A stretch of DNA of 64,000 nt from Halogeometricum limi (GCF_900115785.1 NZ_FOYS01000001.1:875582-939581), one strand, 5' to 3'. Shown: positions 1 through 13,309, counted from the stretch's first letter. Translations and numbers: made by a program. Notes: generated from the sequence alone by a model not told the origin.

Positions 1-28
1 CGTCGCGCACGGCCTCTCCGCGGACGCG

Positions 29-1306
29 ATGGCGACGCTGGCGGCGGCGCACGACTGCCTCGCCCGCGGCGTCGTTCGCGGCGGCGAACGCGCCGCCGGA
101 CGGGCCGTTCGCCACGTCGCGAGCGAGGACGACCCGGTGGAGACGCTCTCGGCCGTTCTCGACCGCCACACGCGCGGTAACGGCGTCCTCGACGACTTGT
201 TCTCGGACCCGCGGGTGACGGACGTCGTCGCCTCGGCACCGGTCGAATCGAACCCGGTTCGCGTCACGGTCGACGGCGACCGGGTCGAGACGAACGTCCG
301 ACTCACGCCCGACGGGGCCGCCGCCCTCGCCTCGCGCTTCCGGCACGCCAGCGGTCGCGGCTTCTCGCGCGCGTCCCCGGCGCTGGACGCCGCCATCGAC
401 GCTCCCGACGGGTCTCGAATCCGCGTCGCGGGCATCACCGCGCCGGCGAGCGAGGGTATCGGCTTCGCGTTCCGCGCGCACGACGACCGCACGTGGACGC
501 TCCCGGCCCTCGTCGGGGCGGGGACGCTCTCCGCGGAGGCGGCGGCGTTCCTCTCGCTCGCGACCGACCGCGGCGCGACCGGTCTCGTCGCCGGGACGCG
601 CGGCGCGGGGAAGACGACGCTTCTCGGCGCACTGCTGTGGGAACTGCCGCGAGACACCCGACTGGTCTCCATCGAAGACACGCCCGAACTCCCGGTCGAC
701 GCGCTCAGAGACGGCGGCCGCGACGTGCAACCGCTCCACACCGACCTCGGGGCGGACGGCTCGTTCTCGCCGACCGAAGCGCTCAGAACCGCGCTCCGAC
801 TGGGGGACGGCGCACTCGTCGTCGGCGAGGTTCGCGGCGACGAGGCGAGCGCGCTCTACGAGGCGATGCGCGTCGGCGCGCACGGTCACGCCGTCCTCGG
901 GACCATCCACGGCGACTCCCCCGAAGCGGTCCGAGAGCGCGTCGTCTCCGACCTCGGCGTCCCGGAGTCGTCGTTCGCGGCGACCGACCTCGTCGTCACC
1001 TGCGCCCGCGACGGTGCGGACCGGCGCGTCGAGACGGTCGCCGAACTCCGGCGCCGCGGCGGCGAGGTCCACTTCGAGACGCTGTACGACCGAGGTCGAA
1101 ACGGCCTCGAATCGACGGGCGTCGTCTCCCGCGGCGACAGTTCGCTTCTCGCCCGCCTCGCCCGACACGACGAATCGTACGCCGACGTCCTCGCCGAACT
1201 CGACCGGCGCGAATCGACGCTCGCGCACCTCGCCGAAACCGACCAGACGCGGCCCTCCGACCGGCCCGCGTCTCCTCTCGAAGTCGAATCGGAGGGGACC
1301 CGATGA
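29..1306 (+). CDS. TadA/FlaI/VirB11-family secretion NTPase of a type IV pilus-like system. The ORF is open to the window edge, so the N-terminus may lie upstream.
   Basis: Walker A GTRGAGKTTLLGAL followed by the VSIEDTPEL and GEVRGDEA motifs typical of TadA/FlaI ATPases. The stop overlaps the next start (ATGA). Confidence 0.8.
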   Translation: MATLAAAHDCLARGVVRGGERAAGRAVRHVASEDDPVETLSAVLDRHTRGNGVLDDLFSDPRVTDVVASAPVESNPVRVTVDGDRVETNVRLTPDGAAALASRFRHASGRGFSRASPALDAAIDAPDGSRIRVAGITAPASEGIGFAFRAHDDRTWTLPALVGAGTLSAEAAAFLSLATDRGATGLVAGTRGAGKTTLLGALLWELPRDTRLVSIEDTPELPVDALRDGGRDVQPLHTDLGADGSFSPTEALRTALRLGDGALVVGEVRGDEASALYEAMRVGAHGHAVLGTIHGDSPEAVRERVVSDLGVPESSFAATDLVVTCARDGADRRVETVAELRRRGGEVHFETLYDRGRNGLESTGVVSRGDSSLLARLARHDESYADVLAELDRRESTLAHLAETDQTRPSDRPASPLEVESEGTR

Positions 1307-3021
1307 CCGACGCCGCCCGCGTCGCTCGGTCGCTCTCTCGTCTCTACCCGTGGTCGGTCGCCCCGACCGAGGACCTCCGACCCGCGCTCTCGTACCTCGG
1401 CAGCGACGCCGACGCGGAGACGGTCACCCGCGCGGGCTACGCGCTGATTCTCCCCGTCGCGACCCTCGCGTTCATCGCCGCGACACTGGTGCTTCCCGAC
1501 GTCGGGCCTGTCGTCCGACTGTCGTCCGCACTCGCGGTCGGACTCGGCGCGGCGCTCGCCGCGCTCCGACTCCCGGTGGTCGCCGTCCGTCTCCGTCGGA
1601 CGCGCGCGCTGGGAGAGACGGCGGCGCTCGTCGGTCGCGCGACGCTCCGAATGCGACTCCACCCGGCCCCCGAACGCGCGGCGTCGTTCGCCGCACACAC
1701 CGCCGACGGACCGCTGGCCGAGAGTCTGGCGGCCCACGTCAGGCGCGCCCGCGGGACGCCCGACTCGGGGTTCGAATCGTTCGCCCGCGAGTGGCGCGCC
1801 GAGTTCCCGGCGCTCGACCGCGCCGTCTCGCTGCTTCTCGCCAGCGCCGACGACCGCGCCGACGACCGCGACCGGACGCTGGACCGCGCACTCGACGCCG
1901 TCCTCGACGGGACACGCGACGAACTCGCGTCGTTCGCGGCCGACGTCCGCGGACCGACCACCGCCGTCTACGCGTTCGGCGTGCTGCTTCCGCTCGCACT
2001 CGTCGGCGTCCTTCCCGCCGCCCGCGCCGGGGGCGTCGTCGTCCCGACCGCCGCGTTCGTCGCCGTCTACGACGTACTCCTCCCGTGCGGACTCGCGGGT
2101 GCGTGCGTCTGGATTCTGGTCCGCCGACCGGTCGCACTCGCTCCCCCGCGCGTCGACGCGAGTCACCCGGACGTCCCCGACTCGCCGACGACTGCCCTCG
2201 TCGTCGCCGCGTGCGCCGCCGTCGTCGGTTGGGTCGTCGGCGGACTCGTCGCACCGTGGGCGGACGGACTCACCGCCGTCGGGGCCGGCGTCGGGTCGGG
2301 ACTCGTCGCGCGCTACCGTCCGATGGCACGGGTCAGAGCGCGCGTCCGCGGCGTCGAAGCGGGATTGGACGACGTGCTCTCGCTCGTCGGCCGCCGGGTC
2401 GGTTCGGGTGACTCCGTCGAAGTCGCCGTCGACTCCGCCGCAGACGACGTTTCGAGTCCGGCGGGCGAGGTGTTCGTCGAGGCGGCCGGGGTCCGTCGCC
2501 GCCTCCGCGTCGGCGTTCGCGAGGCGTTCCTCGGCCGCTACGGGGCACTCGCAGACGTCCCGAGTCCGCGTGCGCGAGGGGCCGCAGCGCTCCTCTCCGT
2601 CGCGGCCGTCGAAGGCCGACCGGCGGGACGCGCCGTCGTCGCGACGGCGGACCACCTGCGTGACCTCCGTCGCGTGGAGAGCGAGGCGCGCCGCGAACTC
2701 GCGTCGGTGACGGGGACGCTGTCGAACACCGCGGCGCTGTTCGCGCCGTTGGTCGGCGGGGCCACCGTCGCGATGGCCGCCCGGATGGGTGCTGCGGAGT
2801 CGACGCTCGTCGAACGCGGGGCACAGACGCTCGGGCCGGACCTCCTCGGCGTCGCCGTCGGCGCGTACGTCCTCGTCTTGGCCGTCCTCTTGACGACGCT
2901 CTCGACGGGCTTGGAACGCGGCCTCGACCGAACGCTCGTCGGCTACCGCGTCGGATTGGCACTGCTCTCTGCGACGGCGGCCTACCTCGCGGCGTTCCGC
3001 GGGGCGGCGCTCGTGTTCTGA
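1303..3021 (+). CDS. TadC/FlaJ-family polytopic membrane platform protein
   Basis: 572 aa with multiple hydrophobic segments, located immediately downstream of and translationally coupled to the ATPase. This is the canonical archaeal pilus operon architecture. Confidence 0.7.
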   Translation: MTDAARVARSLSRLYPWSVAPTEDLRPALSYLGSDADAETVTRAGYALILPVATLAFIAATLVLPDVGPVVRLSSALAVGLGAALAALRLPVVAVRLRRTRALGETAALVGRATLRMRLHPAPERAASFAAHTADGPLAESLAAHVRRARGTPDSGFESFAREWRAEFPALDRAVSLLLASADDRADDRDRTLDRALDAVLDGTRDELASFAADVRGPTTAVYAFGVLLPLALVGVLPAARAGGVVVPTAAFVAVYDVLLPCGLAGACVWILVRRPVALAPPRVDASHPDVPDSPTTALVVAACAAVVGWVVGGLVAPWADGLTAVGAGVGSGLVARYRPMARVRARVRGVEAGLDDVLSLVGRRVGSGDSVEVAVDSAADDVSSPAGEVFVEAAGVRRRLRVGVREAFLGRYGALADVPSPRARGAAALLSVAAVEGRPAGRAVVATADHLRDLRRVESEARRELASVTGTLSNTAALFAPLVGGATVAMAARMGAAESTLVERGAQTLGPDLLGVAVGAYVLVLAVLLTTLSTGLERGLDRTLVGYRVGLALLSATAAYLAAFRGAALVF

Positions 3022-3075
3022 ACCCGTCGACGGCGACGGCGAGGGTTTATATACTGAACCGCGGCCAGACGGCCC

Positions 3076-3555
3076 ATGCTCGACTTACCGCTGGACTCGT
3101 GGTACGCGTGGTTGGGGCTCTCGCTCGCGGGCGTCGCCCTCGTCGGCGCCGCCTCCGGCCTCCCGACCCTCCCGCCGCCGAACGCCGACGCGGCGGCCGC
3201 CACCGTCGACCGCGTGGCCGCGACGGAGTTCGAATCGACGGCGGAACATCCGCTGGACGCGACTGCGGTCCGCATCGGAACGCGTCGCCTCGCGGTCAGG
3301 AACGACGCCGGAACCGCGCACGCGACGTTCGCCTTCGGCCCGGTCACGCCCGTCCCGGCGAACGACTCGCGTCTCCGCGACGTGATTCACGGCGCGCATC
3401 CCTCGTCTGTCTTCGACTCGCCGACGGCGTTCCAGCAGGCCGTCGTCGACGCGCGGGCCCGCGGGAGCGACGCCCCGTGGCGCGAGGTGGACCGCACGCT
3501 TCTCGTTCGCCGCACGACTTGGGAGGGAGTCGATGTCGTCCTCGTGGACGCGTGA
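3076..3555 (+). CDS. Hypothetical membrane-anchored protein of the pilus-like operon
   Basis: 159 aa with an N-terminal hydrophobic segment (WLGLSLAGVALVGAASG). It overlaps the next gene by 23 nt, indicating a tight operon. Confidence 0.5.
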   Translation: MLDLPLDSWYAWLGLSLAGVALVGAASGLPTLPPPNADAAAATVDRVAATEFESTAEHPLDATAVRIGTRRLAVRNDAGTAHATFAFGPVTPVPANDSRLRDVIHGAHPSSVFDSPTAFQQAVVDARARGSDAPWREVDRTLLVRRTTWEGVDVVLVDA

Positions 3556-3979
3556 GTCGCGCGTCTCGGGTCCGCCCCGACACCGCGGACAGGCGTCGCC
3601 CGTCGCGGCGCTCGTCGCCCTGTTCGCCGTCTGCGCGGGATTGAGTCTCTACGCGACGGTTCTCGGCGGGTCGATTCCCGTCGTCGCGGAGCAGACTGTC
3701 GCCGCGCCGACGCTGGACCGCGCCGTCGACGACGTGAGCGACGGCGGCGTCGTCTCACTCGACCGGCTGGCATCCGCGGACGCGGGACGCTACGCTCCCG
3801 ACGGGCGCTCGGTCAACGTCTCGCTCACCTTCGACACCGCGAGCGGTCACGACTACGACTGGGCCGTCGGTCCGCGTGCCCCCGCACGGGCGACCGACCG
3901 CGCGAGTCGACCCGTGAGCGTCCGTCTCGGACCGGGCCGCGTCGACGCCGGCCGTCTCGCGGTGGTGGTGTGGTCGTGA
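3533..3979 (+). CDS. Putative pilin-like protein with a class III (prepilin-type) signal peptide
   Basis: N-terminal ...PRHRG|QASPVAALVALFAVCAGL matches the archaeal prepilin peptidase motif (K/R)G followed by Q/A then a hydrophobic stretch. Operon context supports this. Confidence 0.5.
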   Translation: MSSSWTRESRVSGPPRHRGQASPVAALVALFAVCAGLSLYATVLGGSIPVVAEQTVAAPTLDRAVDDVSDGGVVSLDRLASADAGRYAPDGRSVNVSLTFDTASGHDYDWAVGPRAPARATDRASRPVSVRLGPGRVDAGRLAVVVWS

Positions 3980-4848
3980 ACGCGACCGTCGACGCCGCGG
4001 TGTTCTTCCTCCTCCTCGGTGCCGCCGTCGTCGGTCTCACCACCGCCGACGTGGGCGCGCAGACGGGCGTCGTCGACGACGGTCGGGCGGACGCCGTCGC
4101 CACCGTTCTCGCGACGAGTACGGCGACGGTGAACTACTCGCTCGCACCCGGCGCGCGCGCGGCGAACCAGCGCGGTGCCGCGTTCGAACGAACGGACGGC
4201 CCGGAGTTCGAGCGGACGGTGCACGGCTCTCTCGCCGGGCATCTCTCTCGTGTGACCCTCGGGACGGCGGCCTTCGACGACAGACCGGTCACGCACGCCC
4301 GCGACGGCTTGCGGAACGCGACTCGTCGGGCGCTCACCGCCGAACTCTCGACCGTCGGCCTCCGAATCGACGCCGTCTGGCGTCCCTACCCCGACGCTTC
4401 CGTCGAATCCCGCGTCTCCGTCGGTGAACGCCCCCCGGCGTCGGCCGCGACCGACGCCGCGACGGTGTCGATTCCGGTCGGCGTCGAACCCCTCTCACCG
4501 AACGAGACGGACGACTTCGAGACGCTCTCGGAGGCCGTCGCCGCGCGAACCGTCGAGGCGCTGGCGCCCGCCGGACGGATGCGAGTCGCCCTCCGCGACG
4601 ACGCGCCCGTCTCGACGCTCGCGGCGTACCGATACGACCGACTCGGCGAGGAACTCGGCGTCTCGGTGTCCGAGTCGGTCGAGGACGCGGACACGACGAC
4701 CGCGAACCGTCGCCTCGCGGCGGCGCTCTCCCCGCGGGTCGAATCCGACCTCAGAACGCAGTACGACTCGTCCGAGGACGCCGCGGCCGCCGTCTCGGTC
4801 GCCGAGGTCAGAATCGTCGTCCGGACGTGGGCGACGGAGGGTCGCTGA
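3970..4848 (+). CDS. Hypothetical membrane-anchored protein of the pilus-like operon
   Basis: GTG start overlapping the upstream stop. N-terminal hydrophobic segment AVFFLLLGAAVVGL. 292 aa. Confidence 0.5.
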   Translation: MVVNATVDAAVFFLLLGAAVVGLTTADVGAQTGVVDDGRADAVATVLATSTATVNYSLAPGARAANQRGAAFERTDGPEFERTVHGSLAGHLSRVTLGTAAFDDRPVTHARDGLRNATRRALTAELSTVGLRIDAVWRPYPDASVESRVSVGERPPASAATDAATVSIPVGVEPLSPNETDDFETLSEAVAARTVEALAPAGRMRVALRDDAPVSTLAAYRYDRLGEELGVSVSESVEDADTTTANRRLAAALSPRVESDLRTQYDSSEDAAAAVSVAEVRIVVRTWATEGR

Positions 4849-7800
4849 TGCGACTGGCAGACGACGACCGCGCGCGCGTCCCGTTCGCTCTCGTCGGCGT
4901 CCTCCTCCTCGTCGGCAGTTCGACGTTCGCCGCCTCTCTCGCCGCGCCCGACGTGGGAACCGTGGACCGGTCGACGGACGTGGCGATGGACCGCGTCGAC
5001 GCCGAGACGACCGCCGCACTCCGCGTGGCCGTCCGCGAAGCGGCCCGCGCGGCCGCGAGAGACCCGGTGACGACGGCCGGAAACACGTCCGCCGGTCGCG
5101 CACTCGGGACGAACCGGACGTTCGAGAACTACCTCCGACTCCGGGTCGCGGTGTCGGCCAGAGACGCGCTCTCGTCGGTCGAGCACCGGCGGAGTACGAC
5201 GACGGCGAACGCGTCGCTCGCACCGCTCTCCGCCGTCGGTGCCGCCGGTGCGATGCGGAACGTCTCGCTGTCTGCCGTCGACGGCGGACGCTCGCTCTCC
5301 GTCACCGTCCGCAACGTCTCGCTCGTCGCCTCCAGAGACGGACGCGTGGTCGCAGAGCGGACCGTCTCGCGCCGCGTCACCGTCGCGGTGCCGGTGCTCG
5401 CACTCCACGCGCGGACGACCGACTACCAGCGACGGCTGAACCGGTCGCCGGTGTACGCTCCCGGACTGGCCCGCCGGACGACGGCCGGCCTCCTCGCGGT
5501 CACCGAAGCGCGGGCACTGGCCCAACACGCGAACGCACCTATCGAGAACGTCCTCGGGAACCGCCACGTCGCACTGTCGACGAACGCGGGCGTCCTCGCC
5601 GCACAGCGCGCTTCCTTCGGCCGAGCGGACCCGGACGCGGCCCGCGGCGTCCGCGCGGCGACGCTCCGAACCGGCGCGGAGGACCTCTTCTCCGCGTCCG
5701 GCGCTAGCGGCCCGGCGACAGAGCGACTCCTCGCGGCGGCACCGACGGCGAACCCGTCGCCGCCGCCCGAGACGATGCCGACGAAGACGCTCACCGTCGG
5801 CGTGAACGAGACGGCCGACGACGCGTTTCTCGCCCTCCTGCGCGAACACCGCGACTCGCCCTCGCTGCGGAGTCTCTTCCGCATCGCGTACACGCCGAAC
5901 GTCACCGTCGCCGCCGACGTGACCGACTCCGCGACGGGGCGCAAACCTGCGCCCGACGCGCCCGGTCCCTCGTGGTCGCTCGTCCGCGAACGCGCCGACC
6001 GCGAGGTGTCCGCGGAAGCGACTTCGGGGGTCGAAAGTTCGCCCGCCGTCGCCGAGGGGTCGCGCGTCTTGGAGACGGCGACGCGACGGGTCGTCGTCGA
6101 ACACACCGTCACGCGGACGTGGCGCGGGGCCAACCGGTCGCAGCGAACGACGACGGCGACGTGGACGGACCGCCACCGCGTCCGCGTCGACGTGGTCGGG
6201 TCGCTTCGCTCGCTCCCCGGGCCGAGTCGCTCCGTGACGCCGTTGTTCGAGCGAGGTGGTGCGCTCTCGGGGCCGAACTTGGCGGGAGTCGACCGCCGCG
6301 CGAGCGACGAACTCGCCGCTCGCGGCGGTGCGGACGCCGTCGCTCGGCGCGCGGTCGAGGGGCGCGTGGACGGACGGCCCGAACGACGCCTCGGCGAGCG
6401 TCCGGACGGACTCTATCCGTGGGTGTACGAGGACGTGAAGACGCTCCGCGAGGAGGTTCGAAACCTCTCCGTCGAGGTGACGGCACGGGACACCGCCACC
6501 GGAAACGCCAACGCCGCGGCGGCACTCGCGGCCGTCGTCCGCGACCGGCGGCGCGACCTGATCGACGCACCCGCGAGGTACGACGGCGTCTCGGACCGCG
6601 TGCGCGTCGCCGCCCGGTCGGCGTACCTCGACGCGGTCCTCGCCCGTCTCGACGAACGCGCCGGGGAGACCGCGGGTCAGAACCGCAGACTCGAAACTGC
6701 GCTGGACTCCCGTGGGGTGAACGCGACGGCGACCAGAGAGCGACTTTCGACACCGCTCGTCCGGGCGGAGACCGGGCGGCGAAACGCGAGCGACGACGCC
6801 GGCTTCGTCCCCGACGGCGACCCGGCGTATCTCTCGCTGTCAAGCGTCGACGGTCGGGCCGTGGACGGCGTCAGCGACGACGCCTCTTACACGCCGCTCG
6901 CGGCGCGAAACACGAACCTGTTCACCCTCCCGTACGGTGACCTCGCTGACTCCGTCGTCGACGGCGTCCTCGGTTCGGGAGGCGTCCCGCTCAGGACCGC
7001 CGGCCGTGCACTCATGGCGGCGAACCGAACGCTCGCCGTCCGGAACGACTCGACGCTCCGCGACCGACGAGATGGTCTGACGCCGGCGGTCGCGAACTCG
7101 TTGCGAACGGTCGAACTGACGGCCGTCGACGTCGTCGAGTCGGAGGCGGGGCGCTCCGACACCGCCGCCGAGGCCGCCGTCGACGCCGGACTCGCCCGCT
7201 GGGACTCGCACGGAGAACGCGCCGTCGCGACGGCGAACGGGTCGCTCGCGGCCGCCGTCGCCGCCGAGGCGGCACCGAACGACGCGACGACGCACGACCG
7301 CCTGGAGACGACGCTCCGGGTCGAACTCCGCGAGGAGGCGGCCACCGACAGCGTTCGGGTCCCGAGAGCGGCCGTGAACGAGACGGCGAGTCGAACGCGG
7401 ACGCTCGCGACCGAACTCGCCGACGAGGCGGCGTCGCGCGGGGCCGACCGGGTCACCGGTCGCGTGTTGAACGGGACGCTCGGGTCGGTCCCCGCGGGTC
7501 TCCCCTTGTCGCCGACGCTGAACCCCTGGGTAGCGACGACGAACCTCTGGGTCGTCGAAGCGCACGGCGCGTACGCCCGATTCGCCGTCTCGACCGGTGA
7601 CGACGCGGTGCCGACGACGTACGTTCGCGACGGGTCCGTCGTCAGACTCGACGTGGACGGCGACGGCGAACGCGAACTCGTCGGGTCGAACGAGCGAGTC
7701 GGATTCGAGTTGCGAACCGTCGTCGTCGCCGTCGTCCCGCCGGGCGGAAACGGCGTCGGCGACGTGGACGGCGACGCCATCGAGACGTCGTCCGCGTGGT

Positions 7801-7859
7801 CGGGTCCCGCGCCGGGGCCGCGGTGCGACACGCCGACGGGGCGGTGTCCGGGCGAGTGA
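4848..7859 (+). CDS. Large (about 1000 aa) uncharacterised secreted or membrane-anchored protein of the pilus-like operon. The alternative start at 4827 is less likely than the TGATG-coupled start at 4848.
   Basis: Long ORF with a strong coding-frame signal and an N-terminal hydrophobic anchor (RVPFALVGVLLLVGSSTFAA). It is Ala/Arg/Asp-rich with no recognisable catalytic motif. Confidence 0.55.
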   Translation: MRLADDDRARVPFALVGVLLLVGSSTFAASLAAPDVGTVDRSTDVAMDRVDAETTAALRVAVREAARAAARDPVTTAGNTSAGRALGTNRTFENYLRLRVAVSARDALSSVEHRRSTTTANASLAPLSAVGAAGAMRNVSLSAVDGGRSLSVTVRNVSLVASRDGRVVAERTVSRRVTVAVPVLALHARTTDYQRRLNRSPVYAPGLARRTTAGLLAVTEARALAQHANAPIENVLGNRHVALSTNAGVLAAQRASFGRADPDAARGVRAATLRTGAEDLFSASGASGPATERLLAAAPTANPSPPPETMPTKTLTVGVNETADDAFLALLREHRDSPSLRSLFRIAYTPNVTVAADVTDSATGRKPAPDAPGPSWSLVRERADREVSAEATSGVESSPAVAEGSRVLETATRRVVVEHTVTRTWRGANRSQRTTTATWTDRHRVRVDVVGSLRSLPGPSRSVTPLFERGGALSGPNLAGVDRRASDELAARGGADAVARRAVEGRVDGRPERRLGERPDGLYPWVYEDVKTLREEVRNLSVEVTARDTATGNANAAAALAAVVRDRRRDLIDAPARYDGVSDRVRVAARSAYLDAVLARLDERAGETAGQNRRLETALDSRGVNATATRERLSTPLVRAETGRRNASDDAGFVPDGDPAYLSLSSVDGRAVDGVSDDASYTPLAARNTNLFTLPYGDLADSVVDGVLGSGGVPLRTAGRALMAANRTLAVRNDSTLRDRRDGLTPAVANSLRTVELTAVDVVESEAGRSDTAAEAAVDAGLARWDSHGERAVATANGSLAAAVAAEAAPNDATTHDRLETTLRVELREEAATDSVRVPRAAVNETASRTRTLATELADEAASRGADRVTGRVLNGTLGSVPAGLPLSPTLNPWVATTNLWVVEAHGAYARFAVSTGDDAVPTTYVRDGSVVRLDVDGDGERELVGSNERVGFELRTVVVAVVPPGGNGVGDVDGDAIETSSAWSGPAPGPRCDTPTGRCPGE

Positions 7860-7909
7860 CCGTCGACGAGACGAGAAACCGTTTTGGCCGCGGCGCGGTG
7901 AGTGGGGGT

Positions 7910-8341
7910 ATGCTCTACGACGCGGCCGACGACCCGGCGACGCTGTCGACGACCGAGTTGCGAACGGCGTACGAGACGCAGATTCGAACCGTCGTCGACG
8001 AGGTGGGCGTCCAGACGGCGGCGGCGGACGCCGGTGTGGACGAAGCCGTCGTCTCCACCGTCGCCGACGGCGACGCACCCGAGATGAACGTCGAGGACGC
8101 CGCCGCCCTCCTCGCACTCTCCGACGACTACCCCGACCGAGAGGCCATCGTCCTCGAACTCCGCGACCACCTGCTGATGGGGATGACCACCGGCGTCTTG
8201 GACGTCGACACCATCGCCTCGAACGTCGAGTTGGACCTCTCCGGGCAGGAGATTCAGCAGGTGCTCGAAGGCCGGTCACCGATGACGCTCGCGCAACTGG
8301 CGGCCATCCACCGCTACATCGCCGAGCGAAACGACCGATAG
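7910..8341 (+). CDS. Conserved acidic hypothetical protein
   Basis: 144-aa ORF in haloarchaeal acidic style (pI clearly low). The ATG lies 50 nt after the preceding stop. Confidence 0.5.
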   Translation: MLYDAADDPATLSTTELRTAYETQIRTVVDEVGVQTAAADAGVDEAVVSTVADGDAPEMNVEDAAALLALSDDYPDREAIVLELRDHLLMGMTTGVLDVDTIASNVELDLSGQEIQQVLEGRSPMTLAQLAAIHRYIAERNDR

Positions 8342-8347
8342 CGACCG

Positions 8348-9250
8348 ATGACGCGCGCTCTCGTCATCGGTTGTGGCTACGTCGGCCTCGAACTCGGGCG
8401 ACAACTGCTCGAAGACGGACACGACGTGACCGGCGTTCGGCGGTCCGACGACGGCCTCTCGGCGGTCGAAGCGGCGGGTCTCACCCCCGCCCGGGCCGAC
8501 GCGACCGACCCAGACTCGCTCTCGTCGCTCCCCGACGCCGACTGGGTCGTCTTCGCGGCGAGTTCGGGCGGCCGCGGGGCCGACGCCGCCCGCCGCGTCT
8601 ACGTCGACGGGTTACGGACCGTCGTCGAGGAGTTCGGCGGACGCGACTCGCCGCCCGAGCGACTCGTCTACACCTCCTCGACGGGCGTCTACGGCGACCA
8701 CGGCGGCGACTGGGTGGACGAGGAGACGCCGCTCGACCCGACGACGGAGAAGACGCGCGTCCTCGCCGAAGCCGAACGCGTCGCCGTCGAGGAGGCCGCC
8801 GACGCGGGCATCGACGGGTCGGTCGCTCGGTTCGCGGGGCTGTACGGTCCGAACCGGTATCGGCTCGACCGCTATCTCTCGGGTCCCGTCACCGAGGGCT
8901 ACCTCAACATGGTCCACCGCGACGACGCCGCGGGGGCGGTTCGGTTCCTCCTCACCGACGACGCCGCGCGCGACGAGGACGTCCTCCTCGCCGTCGACGA
9001 CGAACCCGCCGACAAGTGGGCGTTCGCGGACTGGTTGGCCGCGGAGTGCGGCGTCGACAGTCCACCCAAGCGGACGAAATCGGAACGACTGTCCGACGGC
9101 GACCTGTCGGAAGCGGCGCGACGACGCATCCTGACGAGCAAACGGTGCTCGAACGGCCGACTCCGCGAGTTGGGGTACGAGTTCGCCTACCCGACGTACC
9201 GCGAGGGCTACCGCGCCGCGATAGCGGCGTACCGAGGCGAGAGCGCGTAG
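8348..9250 (+). CDS. NAD-dependent epimerase/dehydratase (SDR family)
   Basis: N-terminal Rossmann motif LVIGCGYVGLEL and length and pattern typical of extended SDRs. Confidence 0.75.
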   Translation: MTRALVIGCGYVGLELGRQLLEDGHDVTGVRRSDDGLSAVEAAGLTPARADATDPDSLSSLPDADWVVFAASSGGRGADAARRVYVDGLRTVVEEFGGRDSPPERLVYTSSTGVYGDHGGDWVDEETPLDPTTEKTRVLAEAERVAVEEAADAGIDGSVARFAGLYGPNRYRLDRYLSGPVTEGYLNMVHRDDAAGAVRFLLTDDAARDEDVLLAVDDEPADKWAFADWLAAECGVDSPPKRTKSERLSDGDLSEAARRRILTSKRCSNGRLRELGYEFAYPTYREGYRAAIAAYRGESA

Positions 9251-9332
9251 AGACGCTCTCGGACGGGAAACTGTCGACCGAGTAGGGTCGAAACGAGGGA
9301 ATCTTCATACGTTTGGCTCTTGAGTTCGTGAT

Positions 9333-10526
9333 ATGGATTCGAGGGGCGCTACCGGCGCGGTCGACGCGGCCGCACAGGTAGTGGGCGGCGCCGAGTCTCT
9401 CTTCGGGTCGCACCCGGAGTTAGTCGCGGCACTCATCGTCGGGATGCTGGCGCTGGTCGGCGGCCTGTACGCGATTCTTCGGTTCAAGCGCCCGATGGGG
9501 ACGCGGTTTCTCGAACGACTCTCCGAGTTGGACGAGGTCGCGGTGCTGATGCATCCGAACCCCGACCCCGACGCGATGGCGACGGCAATCGGCGTCGCCT
9601 GCCTCGCCGAACAGGTCGGAACGACCGCGAAGATACAGTACTCCGGGCAGATACGCCACCAGGAGAACCGCGCGTTCGAGACGGTGTTGGACCTCGATTT
9701 GGAGGCCATCGACCACGTCACCGACCTCGGCGCGGAACACGTCGTCCTCGTCGACCACAACAGACCCCGGGGGTTCGCGGGCGCCGACGGCGTCCTCCCG
9801 TTCGCCGTCGTCGACCACCACCCCGGTGAGGGGACGGGCGAACAGTTCACCGACGTGCGAACGGACTACGGGGCGTGTTCGAGCATCGTCGCCGAGTACT
9901 TCCGGGACATCGGCGCGAAACCGGTCCCCCCGGACCGCCACGCGAGTGAAGTCGGCTCGGAGTACACGATACCGTCGACCGTTGCGACGGGCCTGCTCTA
10001 CGGCATCCTCACCGACACGAAGCGACTGACCGCCGGGTGTTCGGAGGCCGACTTCACGGCCGCCGGCTACCTCTACCCCGGCGTCGACGAGGACATCCTC
10101 GACAGAGTCGCCAACCCGGAGGTGTCCAAGGAGGTGCTGGAACTGAAGGCGCGCGCCATCGCGGGACGCGACGTCCGCGGCCCGTTCGCCGTCAGCGACA
10201 TCGGGACGCTCTCGAACGTGGACGCCATCCCGCAGGCCGCGGACGAACTCATCCAGTTGGAGGGCGTCACCGCCGTCGTCGTCTGCGGCGAACGCGACGG
10301 AACGCTGTTTCTCTCGGGGCGGTCACGCGACGACAGAGTCCACATGGGACGGACGCTCGAACACGCCCTCGACAACGTTCCCGGGGCCTCGGCGGGTGGA
10401 CACGCCCGGATGGGCGGCGGCCAGATTCCCCAACGAGAGGGCCGCATCCTCACCGACGGCGGCGACGCCCTCACCCGGACGACGCTCTGTGAACGACTGT
10501 TCGACGCGATGTCGGGCGACGTCTGA
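9333..10526 (+). CDS. DHH/DHHA1-family phosphoesterase (NrnA-like) with an N-terminal TM helix
   Basis: DHH motifs (LVDHNRP, VVDHHP) and a C-terminal GGGH-type DHHA1 motif (GGHARMGGGQ). Confidence 0.75.
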   Translation: MDSRGATGAVDAAAQVVGGAESLFGSHPELVAALIVGMLALVGGLYAILRFKRPMGTRFLERLSELDEVAVLMHPNPDPDAMATAIGVACLAEQVGTTAKIQYSGQIRHQENRAFETVLDLDLEAIDHVTDLGAEHVVLVDHNRPRGFAGADGVLPFAVVDHHPGEGTGEQFTDVRTDYGACSSIVAEYFRDIGAKPVPPDRHASEVGSEYTIPSTVATGLLYGILTDTKRLTAGCSEADFTAAGYLYPGVDEDILDRVANPEVSKEVLELKARAIAGRDVRGPFAVSDIGTLSNVDAIPQAADELIQLEGVTAVVVCGERDGTLFLSGRSRDDRVHMGRTLEHALDNVPGASAGGHARMGGGQIPQREGRILTDGGDALTRTTLCERLFDAMSGDV

Positions 10527-10604
10527 GTTCCCTCCGCACTCCGTTTTTCCGAACTCTCCTCGCGAGTCGGTGCCCGTTTACCCGCACGCCGCGTAGCCCC
10601 CTCC

Positions 10605-11699
10605 ATGGCGACGACAGCGGGCACGTGGAGCTATCGTGACCGATTCGGCGACGCGTTCGCTCGGACCTTCTTTCGGCGGTTCGGGCCGGGCGTCGTCTCC
10701 AGCATCGGGGTCGGAACGTACCTCGGCGACGCGACGGACGACGCGGACGCCGACTACCGCGAGGCGGTGCGGACGGCGCTCGACTCGGGAATCAACCTCG
10801 TCGACACGGCCGTCAACTACCGCTGCCAGCGGAGCGAACGCGCCGTCGGCGACGCACTCCGCGAGAGCGACGCCGACCGGTCGGAAGTCGTCCTCGCGAC
10901 GAAAGGCGGATTCGTCCCCTTCGACGGGTCGCGCCCCGACGACCCCGGCGCGTACGTCCGCGACGAGTTCGTGCGGACGGGTCTGGTCGGCACCGACGAC
11001 TTGGCGCACGGCAGTCACTCGCTCGCGCCGGGATTCCTCGCCGAACTGTTCGACAGGTCGCTGGAGAACCTCGGCGTCGACGCCGTCGACTGCTACTACG
11101 TCCACAACCCGGAGACGCAGTTGGCCGTCCGGTCCCGCGAGGACGTGTACGACCAGTTGGAGGCGGCGTTCGAACTACTGGAGGAGAAGCGACTCGCCGG
11201 CGAACTGGGCGTCTACGGCGTCGCCACGTGGGAGGCGTTCCGCGTCCCGCGCGGCCACGACTCGTATCTCTCGCTCCCCGAGGTAGTCGCCCGCGCCGAA
11301 CGCGCCGCCGAGTCGGCGGGCGCGGACGACTGCGGTTTCTCGGCCGTCCAACTGCCGTTCAACGTGCAGATGGCGGACGCGTTCACCGTCGAGGCGCACG
11401 CGCACCCGGACGGCGACGGCGACGTGAGCGCCCTCTGGTACGCACAGGAGGCCGGACTCGACGTGTTCGCGAGCGCGAGTCTCGGACAGGGTTCGCTCGC
11501 GGCGTCGATTCCGGAGACGGTGGACGCGCAACTGTCGGGCGACACGGCGGCGCAACGGGCCATCAACTTCGCGCGGAGTGCGCCGGGGGTCACGGGCGCA
11601 CTCGTCGGCACCGGGTCGCCGGAACACGTCGCGGAGAACGTCGCCGCCGGGACGTTCGAACCGCTCGGCGCCCGCGCCTTCGACGCCGTGTTCGAGTAG
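10605..11699 (+). CDS. Aldo/keto reductase
   Basis: AKR signature elements (GINLVDTAVNYR, LATKGG) and length of 364 aa. Confidence 0.75.
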   Translation: MATTAGTWSYRDRFGDAFARTFFRRFGPGVVSSIGVGTYLGDATDDADADYREAVRTALDSGINLVDTAVNYRCQRSERAVGDALRESDADRSEVVLATKGGFVPFDGSRPDDPGAYVRDEFVRTGLVGTDDLAHGSHSLAPGFLAELFDRSLENLGVDAVDCYYVHNPETQLAVRSREDVYDQLEAAFELLEEKRLAGELGVYGVATWEAFRVPRGHDSYLSLPEVVARAERAAESAGADDCGFSAVQLPFNVQMADAFTVEAHAHPDGDGDVSALWYAQEAGLDVFASASLGQGSLAASIPETVDAQLSGDTAAQRAINFARSAPGVTGALVGTGSPEHVAENVAAGTFEPLGARAFDAVFE

Positions 11700-11751
11700 A
11701 CGGTGAGGTCGCCGGACGAGTGTCTGTCCGGTCGGGTCCGCGACGACGCGG

Positions 11752-11922
11752 TCAGCCGAGTTCCTTCCACTCCGTCGCGCACTCCGGACAGGTCCGAAGC
11801 GAGAACACCTCGTCGGGGTCGTTCGTCTTCTTGAGCGCTTCCCCGCAGTCGGTACAGGAGAGTCGACCGTACGTGTCTTTCTCCAACTCGCCGTCGCGAA
11901 GCCCCTTCCTCGTCGTTTTCAT
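11752..11922 (-). CDS. Small zinc-ribbon protein (56 aa)
   Basis: CTDCG...CPEC forms two CxxC pairs. Typical haloarchaeal zinc-finger micro-protein. Confidence 0.55.
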   Translation of the reverse strand: MKTTRKGLRDGELEKDTYGRLSCTDCGEALKKTNDPDEVFSLRTCPECATEWKELG

Positions 11923-12076
11923 CCCGCTTCGCCAATCGGGAGGGGGGCGTAAATAGGCGCGGGGGCGGGGGAGAGAGGCCGCACGCGCCGGACCGAGCGC
12001 GCGGGACGACCCGCGGCAAGACCCGCCGGGACGACGTTCCGCAACGCTTGAAGCCCCGCGGGCGGTAGCGACGTTC

Positions 12077-13309
12077 GTGTCACGAGGCCGGCTGTTCGGA
12101 ACGCTGTGTTCGATGGTGCTACTCGTCAACCTCGCACGGGTCGTGTTCGCACCACTGCTGGAGGAACTCATCACCGTCTTCTCCATCGGCGAGGGGACGG
12201 CCGGTCTCATCGCGACGCTCGTCTGGGTCGGAAGCGCGCTTCCGCGAATCCCGACCGGATGGGTGCTGACGCGCGTCCCGCGCCACCGCGTCGTCCTCGG
12301 GACGGGCGTCGTCCTGACGGGCGCGTCCGTGTTCACCGCCGCCGCCGACTCCGTCGTCATGGTCGGCGCGGGTGCGCTGTTGATGGGGCTCTCTTCCGGC
12401 GTCTACTTCGTCTCGGCGAACCCGCTCGTGAGCGAACTCTACCCCGAACGCGTCGGGCGGGCGATGGGTATCCACGGGACCGCGAGCCAACTGGCCGCCG
12501 TCGTCGCCGCGCCGTTCGCGACGCTCGTCCTCTCCCTGTTCGTCGACTGGCGCGTCGTCTTCGTCTGTATCGGCGTCGCCGCGTTCCTCGCGACCATGGC
12601 GTTCTACCGGACTGCGAAGGCGACGGACCTCCCGGACGCCGGGTCGTCCGACAGAGACCTGTTGGGCGCGGCGCGGACGCAGTGGAAGATAATCCTCCTC
12701 GGCGTCGTCATCCTCGGCTTCACCGGCTTCGTCTGGCAGGGCCTCTTCAACTTCTACGAACTGTACATGGAGACGAAGGGTCTCGCGGACGCGACGGCCA
12801 AGAACATGCTGACGCTCATCTTCGCCGCGGGCGTCCCCGCCTTCTTCTTCTCGGGGAAACTCGTCGACCGCCTGCCCCGCATCCCGTACCTGCTCTCCAT
12901 CGTCGTCGTGTTCGTCGTCAGCGTCCTCGTCCTGACGCGGACGACCGGACTCGTCCCCCTCCTCGTCGTCACCGCGGTCATCGGCTACACCATCCACAGT
13001 CTGTTTCCCGCGCTCGACACCTACCTCCTCGACACGCTCCCCGACGAGAACCGCGCGAGCGCGTACGCCGTCTACTCCGCGGGCATGATGGTCGTGCAAG
13101 CGTCGGGGTCGTCCGCCGTCGGCCTCCTGCGCGAGGGTGGCGACGCCTACGAACTCGTCCGCGGTCTGTTCGAGGCCCTCCCGATGCTCGGGAGTCTTCC
13201 GGCGGGTGGCCTCTCCTACGACGCCATCTTCACCGGCCTCTCTATCGGTCTCGGCGTCGTCGTCGTCGCCCTCGTCACCCTCCAGCGTCGGGGCCGACTC
13301 CCGAACTGA
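12077..13309 (+). CDS. MFS transporter. GTG start at 12077; an ATG at 12113 is an alternative.
   Basis: About 12 hydrophobic segments and an MFS-like loop motif after TM2. Confidence 0.75.
   Translation: MSRGRLFGTLCSMVLLVNLARVVFAPLLEELITVFSIGEGTAGLIATLVWVGSALPRIPTGWVLTRVPRHRVVLGTGVVLTGASVFTAAADSVVMVGAGALLMGLSSGVYFVSANPLVSELYPERVGRAMGIHGTASQLAAVVAAPFATLVLSLFVDWRVVFVCIGVAAFLATMAFYRTAKATDLPDAGSSDRDLLGAARTQWKIILLGVVILGFTGFVWQGLFNFYELYMETKGLADATAKNMLTLIFAAGVPAFFFSGKLVDRLPRIPYLLSIVVVFVVSVLVLTRTTGLVPLLVVTAVIGYTIHSLFPALDTYLLDTLPDENRASAYAVYSAGMMVVQASGSSAVGLLREGGDAYELVRGLFEALPMLGSLPAGGLSYDAIFTGLSIGLGVVVVALVTLQRRGRLPN

Follow-up and report, generated by a model that had tools for sequence, protein, structure and literature searches.

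What is built by the pilus-like gene cluster that opens a 64,000-nucleotide (nt) stretch of Halogeometricum limi DNA (NZ_FOYS01000001.1, 875582–939581; hereafter the window), and what does its largest product, a surface protein of about 1,000 amino acids (aa), do there? A preliminary description of the window had recognized a secretion ATPase, a platform protein and four membrane-anchored accessory proteins in its first 7.9 kb. We find by sequence comparison that this region of H. limi is orthologous to the 'subclade 4F' type IV pilus-like system of halobacteria, which in Haloferax volcanii is the pilB2/pilC2 regulon HVO_0746–HVO_0753 beside cetZ2 (HVO_0745). Taking that orthology together with the properties of the accessory proteins, we think it moderately probable that PilB2 and PilC2 make a short, low-copy filament or pseudopilus exposing the large protein, a member of family DUF7286, as a glycoprotein.

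Both the literature and Pfam already cover the locus, and our analysis adds nothing to the catalogue itself; its additions are a predicted promoter that recurs three times in the cluster, DUF7285 as a candidate processed subunit, and a modelled DUF7286 fold without known relatives. Haloarchaea carry about five pilB/pilC loci, with function shown for two (pilB3C3 and pilB1C1). The 4F locus is the only one of them tied to a cytoskeletal gene, and what it does matters to the question of how archaeal tubulin-like proteins are linked to surface machines.

A subclade 4F locus in H. limi

Makarova, Koonin and Albers (2016; PMC4858521) described 4F as a system of hybrid origin, in which a crenarchaeal-type ATPase/TadC module is combined with euryarchaeal pilins. 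In their account the ATPase carries an extra Cys-rich domain at its N terminus, arCOG07564 is a coiled-coil protein rich in Asp and arCOG10216 a predicted pilin, and the system also has an 'S-layer-like' surface protein, with an FtsZ-like gene in the neighbourhood (PMC4858521). Their Table S4 (rows 1759–1768) gives the Haloarcula hispanica locus as arCOG07564, 10216, 01818 (ATPase), 01814 (TadC), 04673, 05166, 06291, 02945, 04674 and 03095, where arCOG04673, arCOG05166 and arCOG06291 are 'predicted pilins', arCOG02945 is a surface protein of ~1000 aa, arCOG04674 is a helix-turn-helix (HTH) protein and arCOG03095 an epimerase. The H. limi genes equal this locus in order and size, and the 4F signature set occurs in sequence: DUF7310, DUF7311, the ATPase and TadC pair, DUF7283, DUF7285, DUF7284 and DUF7286. 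Correspondence to arCOGs was drawn from synteny, gene sizes and the Haloferax (H. volcanii) orthologues, and the lengths that a 2026 RNA-seq study tabulates for HVO_0745–HVO_0755 agree gene for gene with the Haloferax locus in our set (L002). The H. limi genes likewise agree in length with HVO_0746–0755. Halobacterium (Hbt.) salinarum pil-2 was considered as the orthologue and rejected because its TadC, arCOG01810, is that of subclade 4C.

Brown and Duggin (2023; PMC9856176) reported the pilB2/pilC2 regulon beside cetZ2 in Haloferacales and Halobacteriales and stated its role to be unknown; a 2026 preprint on type IV filaments (TFF; 10.64898/2026.04.22.720090) repeats the 4F classification. 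Experiments in H. volcanii cover pilB3C3 and pilB1C1 only (Legerme & Pohlschroder), and a full-text literature search for DUF7283–7286 and HVO_0747–0753 returned no paper, with HVO identifiers occurring in supplementary tables only. The preliminary description was right to place the locus among the uncharacterized haloarchaeal paralogues; 4F is catalogued by Makarova et al., by Brown and Duggin and in the preprint.

The first 7.9 kb of the window (~73% GC) contain six consecutive plus-strand open reading frames (ORFs) with a third-position GC content (GC3) of 0.85–0.89, which is of coding type. Upstream of the window, in a longer stretch of the same contig (L001), lie the 5′ end of the ATPase gene and two further genes, assigned by Pfam to DUF7310 (coiled coil) and DUF7311, giving an entire cluster of eight; a CetZ gene (CetZ_C, 1.2e-65) stands divergently 76 nt upstream of DUF7310 (L001). 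The overlaps first reported were ATGA between the ATPase and TadC genes, 23 nt between DUF7283 and DUF7285, 10 nt between DUF7285 and DUF7284, and TGATG between DUF7284 and DUF7286. All are as given except the third, which is more likely 4 nt (GTGA), because GTG 3976 (290 aa) is the DUF7284 start in NCBI and Logan gene calls; 10 nt requires a start at GTG 3970, and an exact-sequence look-up of the resulting 292-aa form was empty, the databases carrying the 290-aa form. The TadC and DUF7283 genes do not overlap and are separated by a 54-nt spacer.

The motor genes

The full ATPase gene has 651 codons and starts ~650 nt upstream of the window (L001). Its 3′ two-thirds (434 codons; pilB2-type) end at position 1306 of the plus strand, with the frame open to base 2. 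The product matches Pfam T2SSE (2e-18) and, among NCBIfam models, a TadA-family model (127 bits, cut-off 373), FlaI (98 bits), TrbB and VirB11, all below their equivalog or family cut-offs; among solved structures the closest to it are A. fulgidus GspE (2oap, 4.6e-27), CpaF and FlaI. These T2SSE, TadA and FlaI matches bear out the earlier reading of a Tad/type IV pilus-like locus. Conserved across 66 orthologues are the Walker A (GAGKTT), Asp, Walker B and His boxes, and four N-terminal cysteines (C32, C34, C58 and C70; L001 4597–4713, upstream of the window) are invariant in all 66 that were aligned. Judged by these matches and motifs the protein is a FlaI/TadA-type secretion ATPase of the hexameric VirB11/FlaI family, and its nucleotide-binding motifs are intact. 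Its CxC...C...C N-terminal domain is probably metal-binding and is the feature that Makarova et al. note as the mark of 4F.

The next gene (1303–3021, plus strand) encodes a PilC2/TadC-like polytopic platform of 572 aa. Profile support for this assignment is weak by itself (Pfam T2SSF, E 0.0011, 19.4 bits, under the cut-off of 25.2), and the overlap with the ATPase gene, several hydrophobic segments and the conserved position agree with it: the gene directly follows that for the ATPase in all 74 related loci. By position and size the protein corresponds to arCOG01814, 'TadC, subclade 4F'.

Small accessory proteins and a candidate processed subunit

As first described, four proteins with N-terminal anchors follow the motor genes. 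In Pfam they match only DUF7283, DUF7285, DUF7284 and DUF7286, the DUF72xx outcome for which the preliminary description had suggested looking; no NCBIfam model matched these or the DUF7310 and DUF7311 proteins, and at E ≤ 0.01, the threshold used for the accessory proteins in both databases, DUF7283, DUF7285, DUF7284 and DUF7286 gave no Pilin_N, archaellin or Fla match. By this measure the accessory genes are distinct, as had been proposed, from those of the PilA1–6 pilins and the archaellum FlaC–H/Arl proteins.

A prepilin-like RG|Q signal had been noted in one of them, and it is present in the 148-aa DUF7285 protein (3533–3979, plus strand; Pfam 1.2e-33). This protein has a charged, class III-like leader of 19 aa ending in RG, followed by QASP and a hydrophobic helix (PRHRG|QASPVAALVALFAV). 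Across the ~80 loci fetched for comparison (66–82 per count, depending on the gene), R[GA]|Q..P with a hydrophobic 18-mer occurs in 77/79, and a screen of the window's ORFs for class III-like signals found DUF7285 to be the sole one of its kind. We regard it as the best candidate for a pilin-like subunit processed by PibD.

Its neighbours begin differently. DUF7283 (3076–3555, plus strand, 159 aa; Pfam 8.5e-56; arCOG04673 by position) has an acidic N terminus (MLDLPLDSWY) that passes directly into a single hydrophobic helix; the N termini, compared in 80 loci, have neither a leader nor a [KR][GA] site. DUF7311 begins directly at its hydrophobic segment, also without a leader. DUF7284 (3976–4848, or 3970–4848, plus strand; 290 aa, or 292 aa with GTG 3970; Pfam 7.6e-82) has a leader, R[GA]|(I/V/S)STV, only in some families (19 of 70 loci). 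The leader is kept in Haladaptatus, Halorussus, Halosimplex and Salinigranum (L025, L028, L029, L031, L058 and L079, ~9100–9250); in Haloferacaceae including H. limi (3976–4020) the start lies 1–3 residues ahead of the hydrophobic helix. A class III-like leader has apparently been lost or gained inside this one orthologous family. With the motif present in DUF7285 and, with Arg at +1, in DUF7286 (79/82 loci), and absent from DUF7283, DUF7311 and H. limi DUF7284, the N-terminal evidence for these proteins as pilins is mixed.

In a confident model of DUF7284 a short helix at the N terminus is followed by a disordered linker and then a compact α/β domain, and a search with the model returned no solved relative and no pilin match. 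Pilins diverge fast. Comparison of the five family alignments with hhalign gave probabilities of at most 3.2%, which lends no support to the small accessory proteins being mutual paralogues; duplication of pilins had been proposed by Makarova et al. (PMC4858521).

DUF7286, a large predicted surface glycoprotein

The last gene of the cluster (4848–7859, plus strand) encodes 1,003 aa, and its product is 100% identical to an H. limi protein on record. It had been described as without recognizable domains, which does not hold: the protein matches Pfam DUF7286 over its full length with 1123 bits. Clustered at the 50% identity level, the family counts 568 representatives, which are almost without exception ~1000 aa long and match end to end. 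A pattern scan that took one genome for each species recovered a relative in 260 species genomes, from haloarchaea only among the matches listed.

The best conserved stretch of DUF7286 is its first 21 residues. They follow the pattern MRLADDxR[GA]RVPFALxG and lead into one hydrophobic helix, with R[GA]R[VI]PFAL present in 79/82 loci. Cleaved Sec signal peptides are not normally near-invariant; the near-invariance here argues for an N terminus that is specifically recognized in the membrane and is not a plain signal peptide. Beyond it the protein has 17 sequons (N-x-S/T) against 5.3 expected, and the family has a mean of 11.4 per protein, with positions kept (for example, N797 in 84% and N156 in 74%). 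Because sequons are enriched and several are conserved in position, DUF7286 fits an extracellular N-glycoprotein with a large ectodomain.

The AlphaFold2 (AF2) model of DUF7286 (mean predicted local distance difference test, pLDDT, 84.2) has one N-terminal helix, then long helical bundles, with predicted helices at 580–621, 735–767 and 840–873, long β-hairpins at 351–391 and 405–452, and a C-terminal β-domain. Searching the family profile against PDB sequences gave no match, and Foldseek with the model gave none at E ≤ 1e-3, with no adhesin-type or pilin domain. Weak fold rows for TolC, perforin and gasdermin (probability at most 0.15) were not used. As modelled, the fold is without known relative. 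At the C terminus (window 7800–7859) two cysteines, ...PRCDTPTGRCPGE, lie within the conserved 'GW..PGC.......C' tail of the family; they are the sole cysteines of the protein and may possibly form a terminal disulfide or metal site. The 2026 preprint labels arCOG02945 'adhesin-like' (10.64898/2026.04.22.720090), and any role as adhesin, cap or substrate, the three options offered by the preliminary description, is a guess.

A predicted promoter repeated at three genes

The spacer between the TadC and DUF7283 genes holds a predicted internal promoter (3046–3075, plus strand), conserved across loci, consisting of a TATA box, TTTATATA, at 3046–3053 and a GC-rich dyad, GGCC-AGAC-GGCC, at 3063–3074 that abuts the DUF7283 ATG. 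In 77 loci aligned on this ATG, T stands at −30 in 76, T at −29 in 69 and A at −27 in 59, and AT content is 78% at −32..−24 against 29% around it. The architecture spans 36 nt, with the TATA box at −30..−23 and the dyad around CCA at −12..−10 (TATA-to-ATG dyad sequence, for example, GACGGGACCACCCCGG); both dyad arms co-vary between lineages (for example, CGGGACCAcCCCG and GCGGCCAGCCGC). In haloarchaea a TATA box centred ~27 nt before the A of ATG implies a leaderless mRNA, and since the DUF7283 box has this spacing its transcript is predicted to be leaderless, starting at 3076.

H. limi has two other copies of this architecture, at L001 3451–3486 and 4468–4503, before the DUF7310 and ATPase starts. 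A position weight matrix (PWM) trained on the DUF7283 promoter sites only scored at least 14 bits before the pilB2 start in 55/71 loci (at least 8 bits in 66/71) and before the DUF7310 start in 37/69 (at least 8 bits in 60/69), with no site of at least 14 bits before cetZ2, TadC, DUF7286, DUF5791, epimerase or DHH genes. Over the 3.8 Mb scanned, 171 of 178 sites fall at DUF7310, pilB2 and DUF7283 starts. The sole site of at least 5 bits in the 64-kb window is that at 3076, which scores 28.6 bits with H. limi excluded from the matrix, and 3046–3075 is the sole AT-rich promoter-like match within 1–9500.

Because the same promoter precedes DUF7310, pilB2 and DUF7283, the cluster is probably not one operon; it would comprise three co-controlled units, [DUF7310–DUF7311], [pilB2–pilC2] and [DUF7283–DUF7285–DUF7284–DUF7286]. 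Of the six-gene tight operon in the preliminary description, the six head-to-tail plus-strand ORFs stand, the gene number does not, and a single transcript is improbable. A dedicated regulator likely binds at the dyad, and the promoter copies that share it could serve as bait for that regulator and as a means of switching on a silent system. Two candidates were considered and not adopted. CsmR recognizes TATCA-N4-TGATA, to which only the DUF7310 promoter of some species is loosely similar (TTTATCAGTGATGA), and cluster genes are little altered in a csmR deletion strain except HVO_0752, leaving CsmR not established as the reader of the promoter. The HTH-like DUF5791 protein is unlikely to be specific, being retained with cetZ2 in species without the pilus genes.

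Expression in H. volcanii

Normalized counts tabulated for H. volcanii in a 2026 RNA-seq study (supplement S9 of PMC13286277) are ~0.3–3 for HVO_0746–0752 and ~10 for HVO_0753, the DUF7286 gene; the table gives 50–300 for typical genes and, in wild type, 56–85 for cetZ2. The locus is close to silent in standard culture, and this is the probable reason that no phenotype is known. At low cell density HVO_0748–0752, which are the motor and small accessory genes, rise together 5–8 fold in a strain deleted for cirA, a KaiC-like regulator, and HVO_0746, HVO_0747 and cetZ2 are not raised; a joint rise without HVO_0746 and HVO_0747 is consistent with the three-unit model.

Conservation and neighbouring genes

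The whole order, cetZ (minus strand), DUF7310, DUF7311, ATPase, TadC, DUF7283, DUF7285, DUF7284, DUF7286, DUF5791, epimerase and DHH, is kept in ~65/80 loci, from Halogeometricum, Halobellus, Haloquadratum, Haloferax, Haloplanus, Halorubrum, Haladaptatus, Halorussus, Halosimplex and Natronomonas. Adjacency to cetZ is seen in ~65/82 loci, and DUF5791 and epimerase lie downstream in ~65/82. Four loci (L049, L078, L061 and L080; ~8200–13100) carry the DUF7283–DUF7286 block and its promoter without adjacent ATPase and TadC genes, so the accessory module is separable from the motor genes. In two Halorussus species an inversion has displaced cetZ and DUF7310.

In H. limi the downstream genes are those for a DUF5791 protein (7910–8341, plus strand; arCOG04674, HTH-like; Pfam 6.8e-50) and an NAD-dependent epimerase (8348–9250, plus strand; Pfam Epimerase 8.6e-14). 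The longest DUF5791 ORF would start at GTG 7796 (7796–8341) and run over the last 64 nt of DUF7286; its Pfam match does not start until residue 55, and public gene calls start at ATG 7910, giving 143 aa and no overlap. Both genes are linked to cetZ2 even where pilus genes are absent (Brown & Duggin 2023, PMC9856176), and they probably lie outside the machine. No tRNA genes were found across window 1–64000, and in a GC3-based ORF screen the remainder of the window has the appearance of ordinary chromosomal housekeeping genes.

What the locus might build

In the assembly that we favour, PilB2 would power PilC2 in drawing subunits with pilin-like N-terminal helices out of the membrane, and these would stack into the short, low-copy filament or pseudopilus. 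DUF7285 would be cleaved at R[GA]|Q by PibD, the class III signal peptidase, and DUF7283, DUF7284 and DUF7311 would serve as minor or priming subunits that are unprocessed or whose processing varies with lineage. DUF7286, heavily N-glycosylated, would supply the distal or cell-surface-exposed part, joining by way of its invariant helix at the N terminus, and the filament would be made only under conditions outside standard culture.

Several observations weigh against this assembly. In H. limi a cleavable leader is missing from three of the five 'pilin-like' proteins, and the two motifs that are present are atypical of class III sites when set beside the FlaFind pattern, DUF7285 having Pro at +4 and DUF7286 Arg at +1. 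Small residues stand at −1/−3 after the DUF7286 helix, which makes ordinary export by Sec and signal peptidase I possible. A pilin has a long N-terminal helix with a β-sheet head, and the DUF7284 model is without the long α1 of this 'lollipop'. The DUF7285 transcript, per unit length, is about equal to those of the other accessory genes, and not in the large excess to be expected of a major pilin. Makarova et al. propose that the major pilin is encoded elsewhere, as arCOG02981, and their table has no FlaFind-positive flag on arCOG05166 (PMC4858521). No filament, PibD cleavage or phenotype has been reported for a pilB2 locus in any species.

Alternatively, the locus may encode no adhesive filament but a CetZ2-coupled device for the envelope or cell shape, in which a membrane-embedded pseudopilus or stator-like complex positions or inserts DUF7286 in or under the S-layer and CetZ2 and DUF7310 form a cytoplasmic scaffold. 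Most accessory proteins lack cleavable leaders, and the archaellum proteins ArlF and ArlG, for comparison, are unprocessed. Near-stoichiometric transcript levels, the cytoplasmic coiled-coil partner DUF7310 and a modelled DUF7286 of long helices and long β-hairpins, not adhesin modules, all point the same way, as do the divergent cetZ2 adjacency conserved across families (PMC9856176) and the action of CetZ2 in stationary-phase shape control (PMC13556191). We nevertheless consider this device unlikely: cetZ2 lacks the system promoter, is expressed 20–100 fold above the pil genes in H. volcanii, occurs without pil genes in Natrialbales and is parted from them in 13 species (PMC9856176). A bolder version seems to us distinctly unlikely, namely that the product is not an adhesion pilus at all and that the three leaderless units, their dyad read by a dedicated factor, build a CetZ2-associated machine whose mostly unprocessed, helix-anchored stack deploys DUF7286, a giant glycoprotein of novel fold, and remodels the S-layer or cell shape.

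DUF7286 could also be cargo, a Sec-exported substrate released or pushed through the S-layer by a piston of DUF7285 and partners resembling that of a type II secretion system (T2SS). To our knowledge no T2SS-like secretion has been described in archaea, nor have they an outer membrane to cross, and the near-invariant N-terminal 21 residues are unlike cleaved Sec signals; we consider a piston very unlikely even though the N terminus is of n-h-c type with small residues at −1/−3 (TFAASLA|AP), DUF7286 has no C-terminal anchor, HVO_0753 transcripts run several-fold over their neighbours, and arCOG02945 is flagged 'SIGNAL' in the table of Makarova et al. (PMC4858521). The near-silence of the locus in culture, which must then respond to some signal, would suit a specialized filament for cell–cell contact or DNA exchange, induced only by stress by analogy with the Ups pili of Sulfolobus (clade 4 ATPase). 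Its ATPase does belong to the mostly crenarchaeal clade 4 (PMC4858521), and Legerme & Pohlschroder raised this possibility for acquired pilB/C paralogues. Such a filament is nonetheless extremely improbable, given that mating in H. volcanii is reported to be unaffected by pibD deletion (PMC7749143), that Pfam and NCBIfam matches liken none of the accessory proteins to a Ups or Ced component, and that DNA-binding and nuclease domains are absent. The mating transcriptome paper contains nothing on the pilB2 locus (PMC7749143).

Comparison with known systems

The arrangement of the locus invites comparison with the minor-pilin and tip complexes of T2SS and type IV pili (T4P), which are GspH–K in the former and FimU–PilVWXE with PilY1 in the latter. 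No sequence or fold similarity to the accessory proteins was detected, and the likeness would be one of design: several low-abundance subunits with N-terminal helices and one very large surface component, encoded behind motor genes. Bacterial Tad/Flp systems (CpaF/TadA, TadB/C, Flp, TadE/F) come nearer in the motor, the pilB2 ATPase being about equally close to CpaF (1e-19) and FlaI, and their TadE/F-like minor subunits, which have helices at the N terminus, can be set beside the accessory proteins as functional analogues. Unlike them, the locus has no Flp-type pilin, secretin, TadZ or TadV recognizable in Pfam or NCBIfam searches, and phylogenetically it belongs to archaeal clade 4.

Among haloarchaeal systems, PilB3/PilC3–PilA1–6 of H. 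volcanii and pil-1 of Hbt. salinarum have the same FlaI-family ATPase and TadC-like platform, and PibD is presumably common to them and the pilB2 locus. Their ATPase is of clade 2, compared with clade 4 in the pilB2 locus; the PilA1–6 pilins are encoded in trans with a conserved PilA H-domain, whereas the pilB2 accessory proteins have no Pilin_N or PilA match; and the PilB3/PilC3 and pil-1 loci are expressed, with visible pili and adhesion phenotypes, whereas the pilB2 locus is nearly silent. Subclade 4C (H. volcanii pilB1/pilC1 and Hbt. salinarum pil-2) shares with 4F a hybrid clade-4 ATPase/TadC module and small pilin-like genes in cis. It differs in its TadC (arCOG01810 versus arCOG01814) and its pilin set (arCOG06296, 03933, 04679, 04680 and 02911), and it has no 1,000-aa protein, no DUF7310 or DUF7311 and no cetZ2 link. 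The closest counterpart is H. volcanii pilB2/pilC2, in which the eight families, their order and the gene sizes are the same, cetZ is likewise divergent, DUF5791 and epimerase genes again follow and the ATPase N terminus is again Cys-rich; it differs from the H. limi locus in nothing essential, and the two DUF7286 proteins are ~40% identical.

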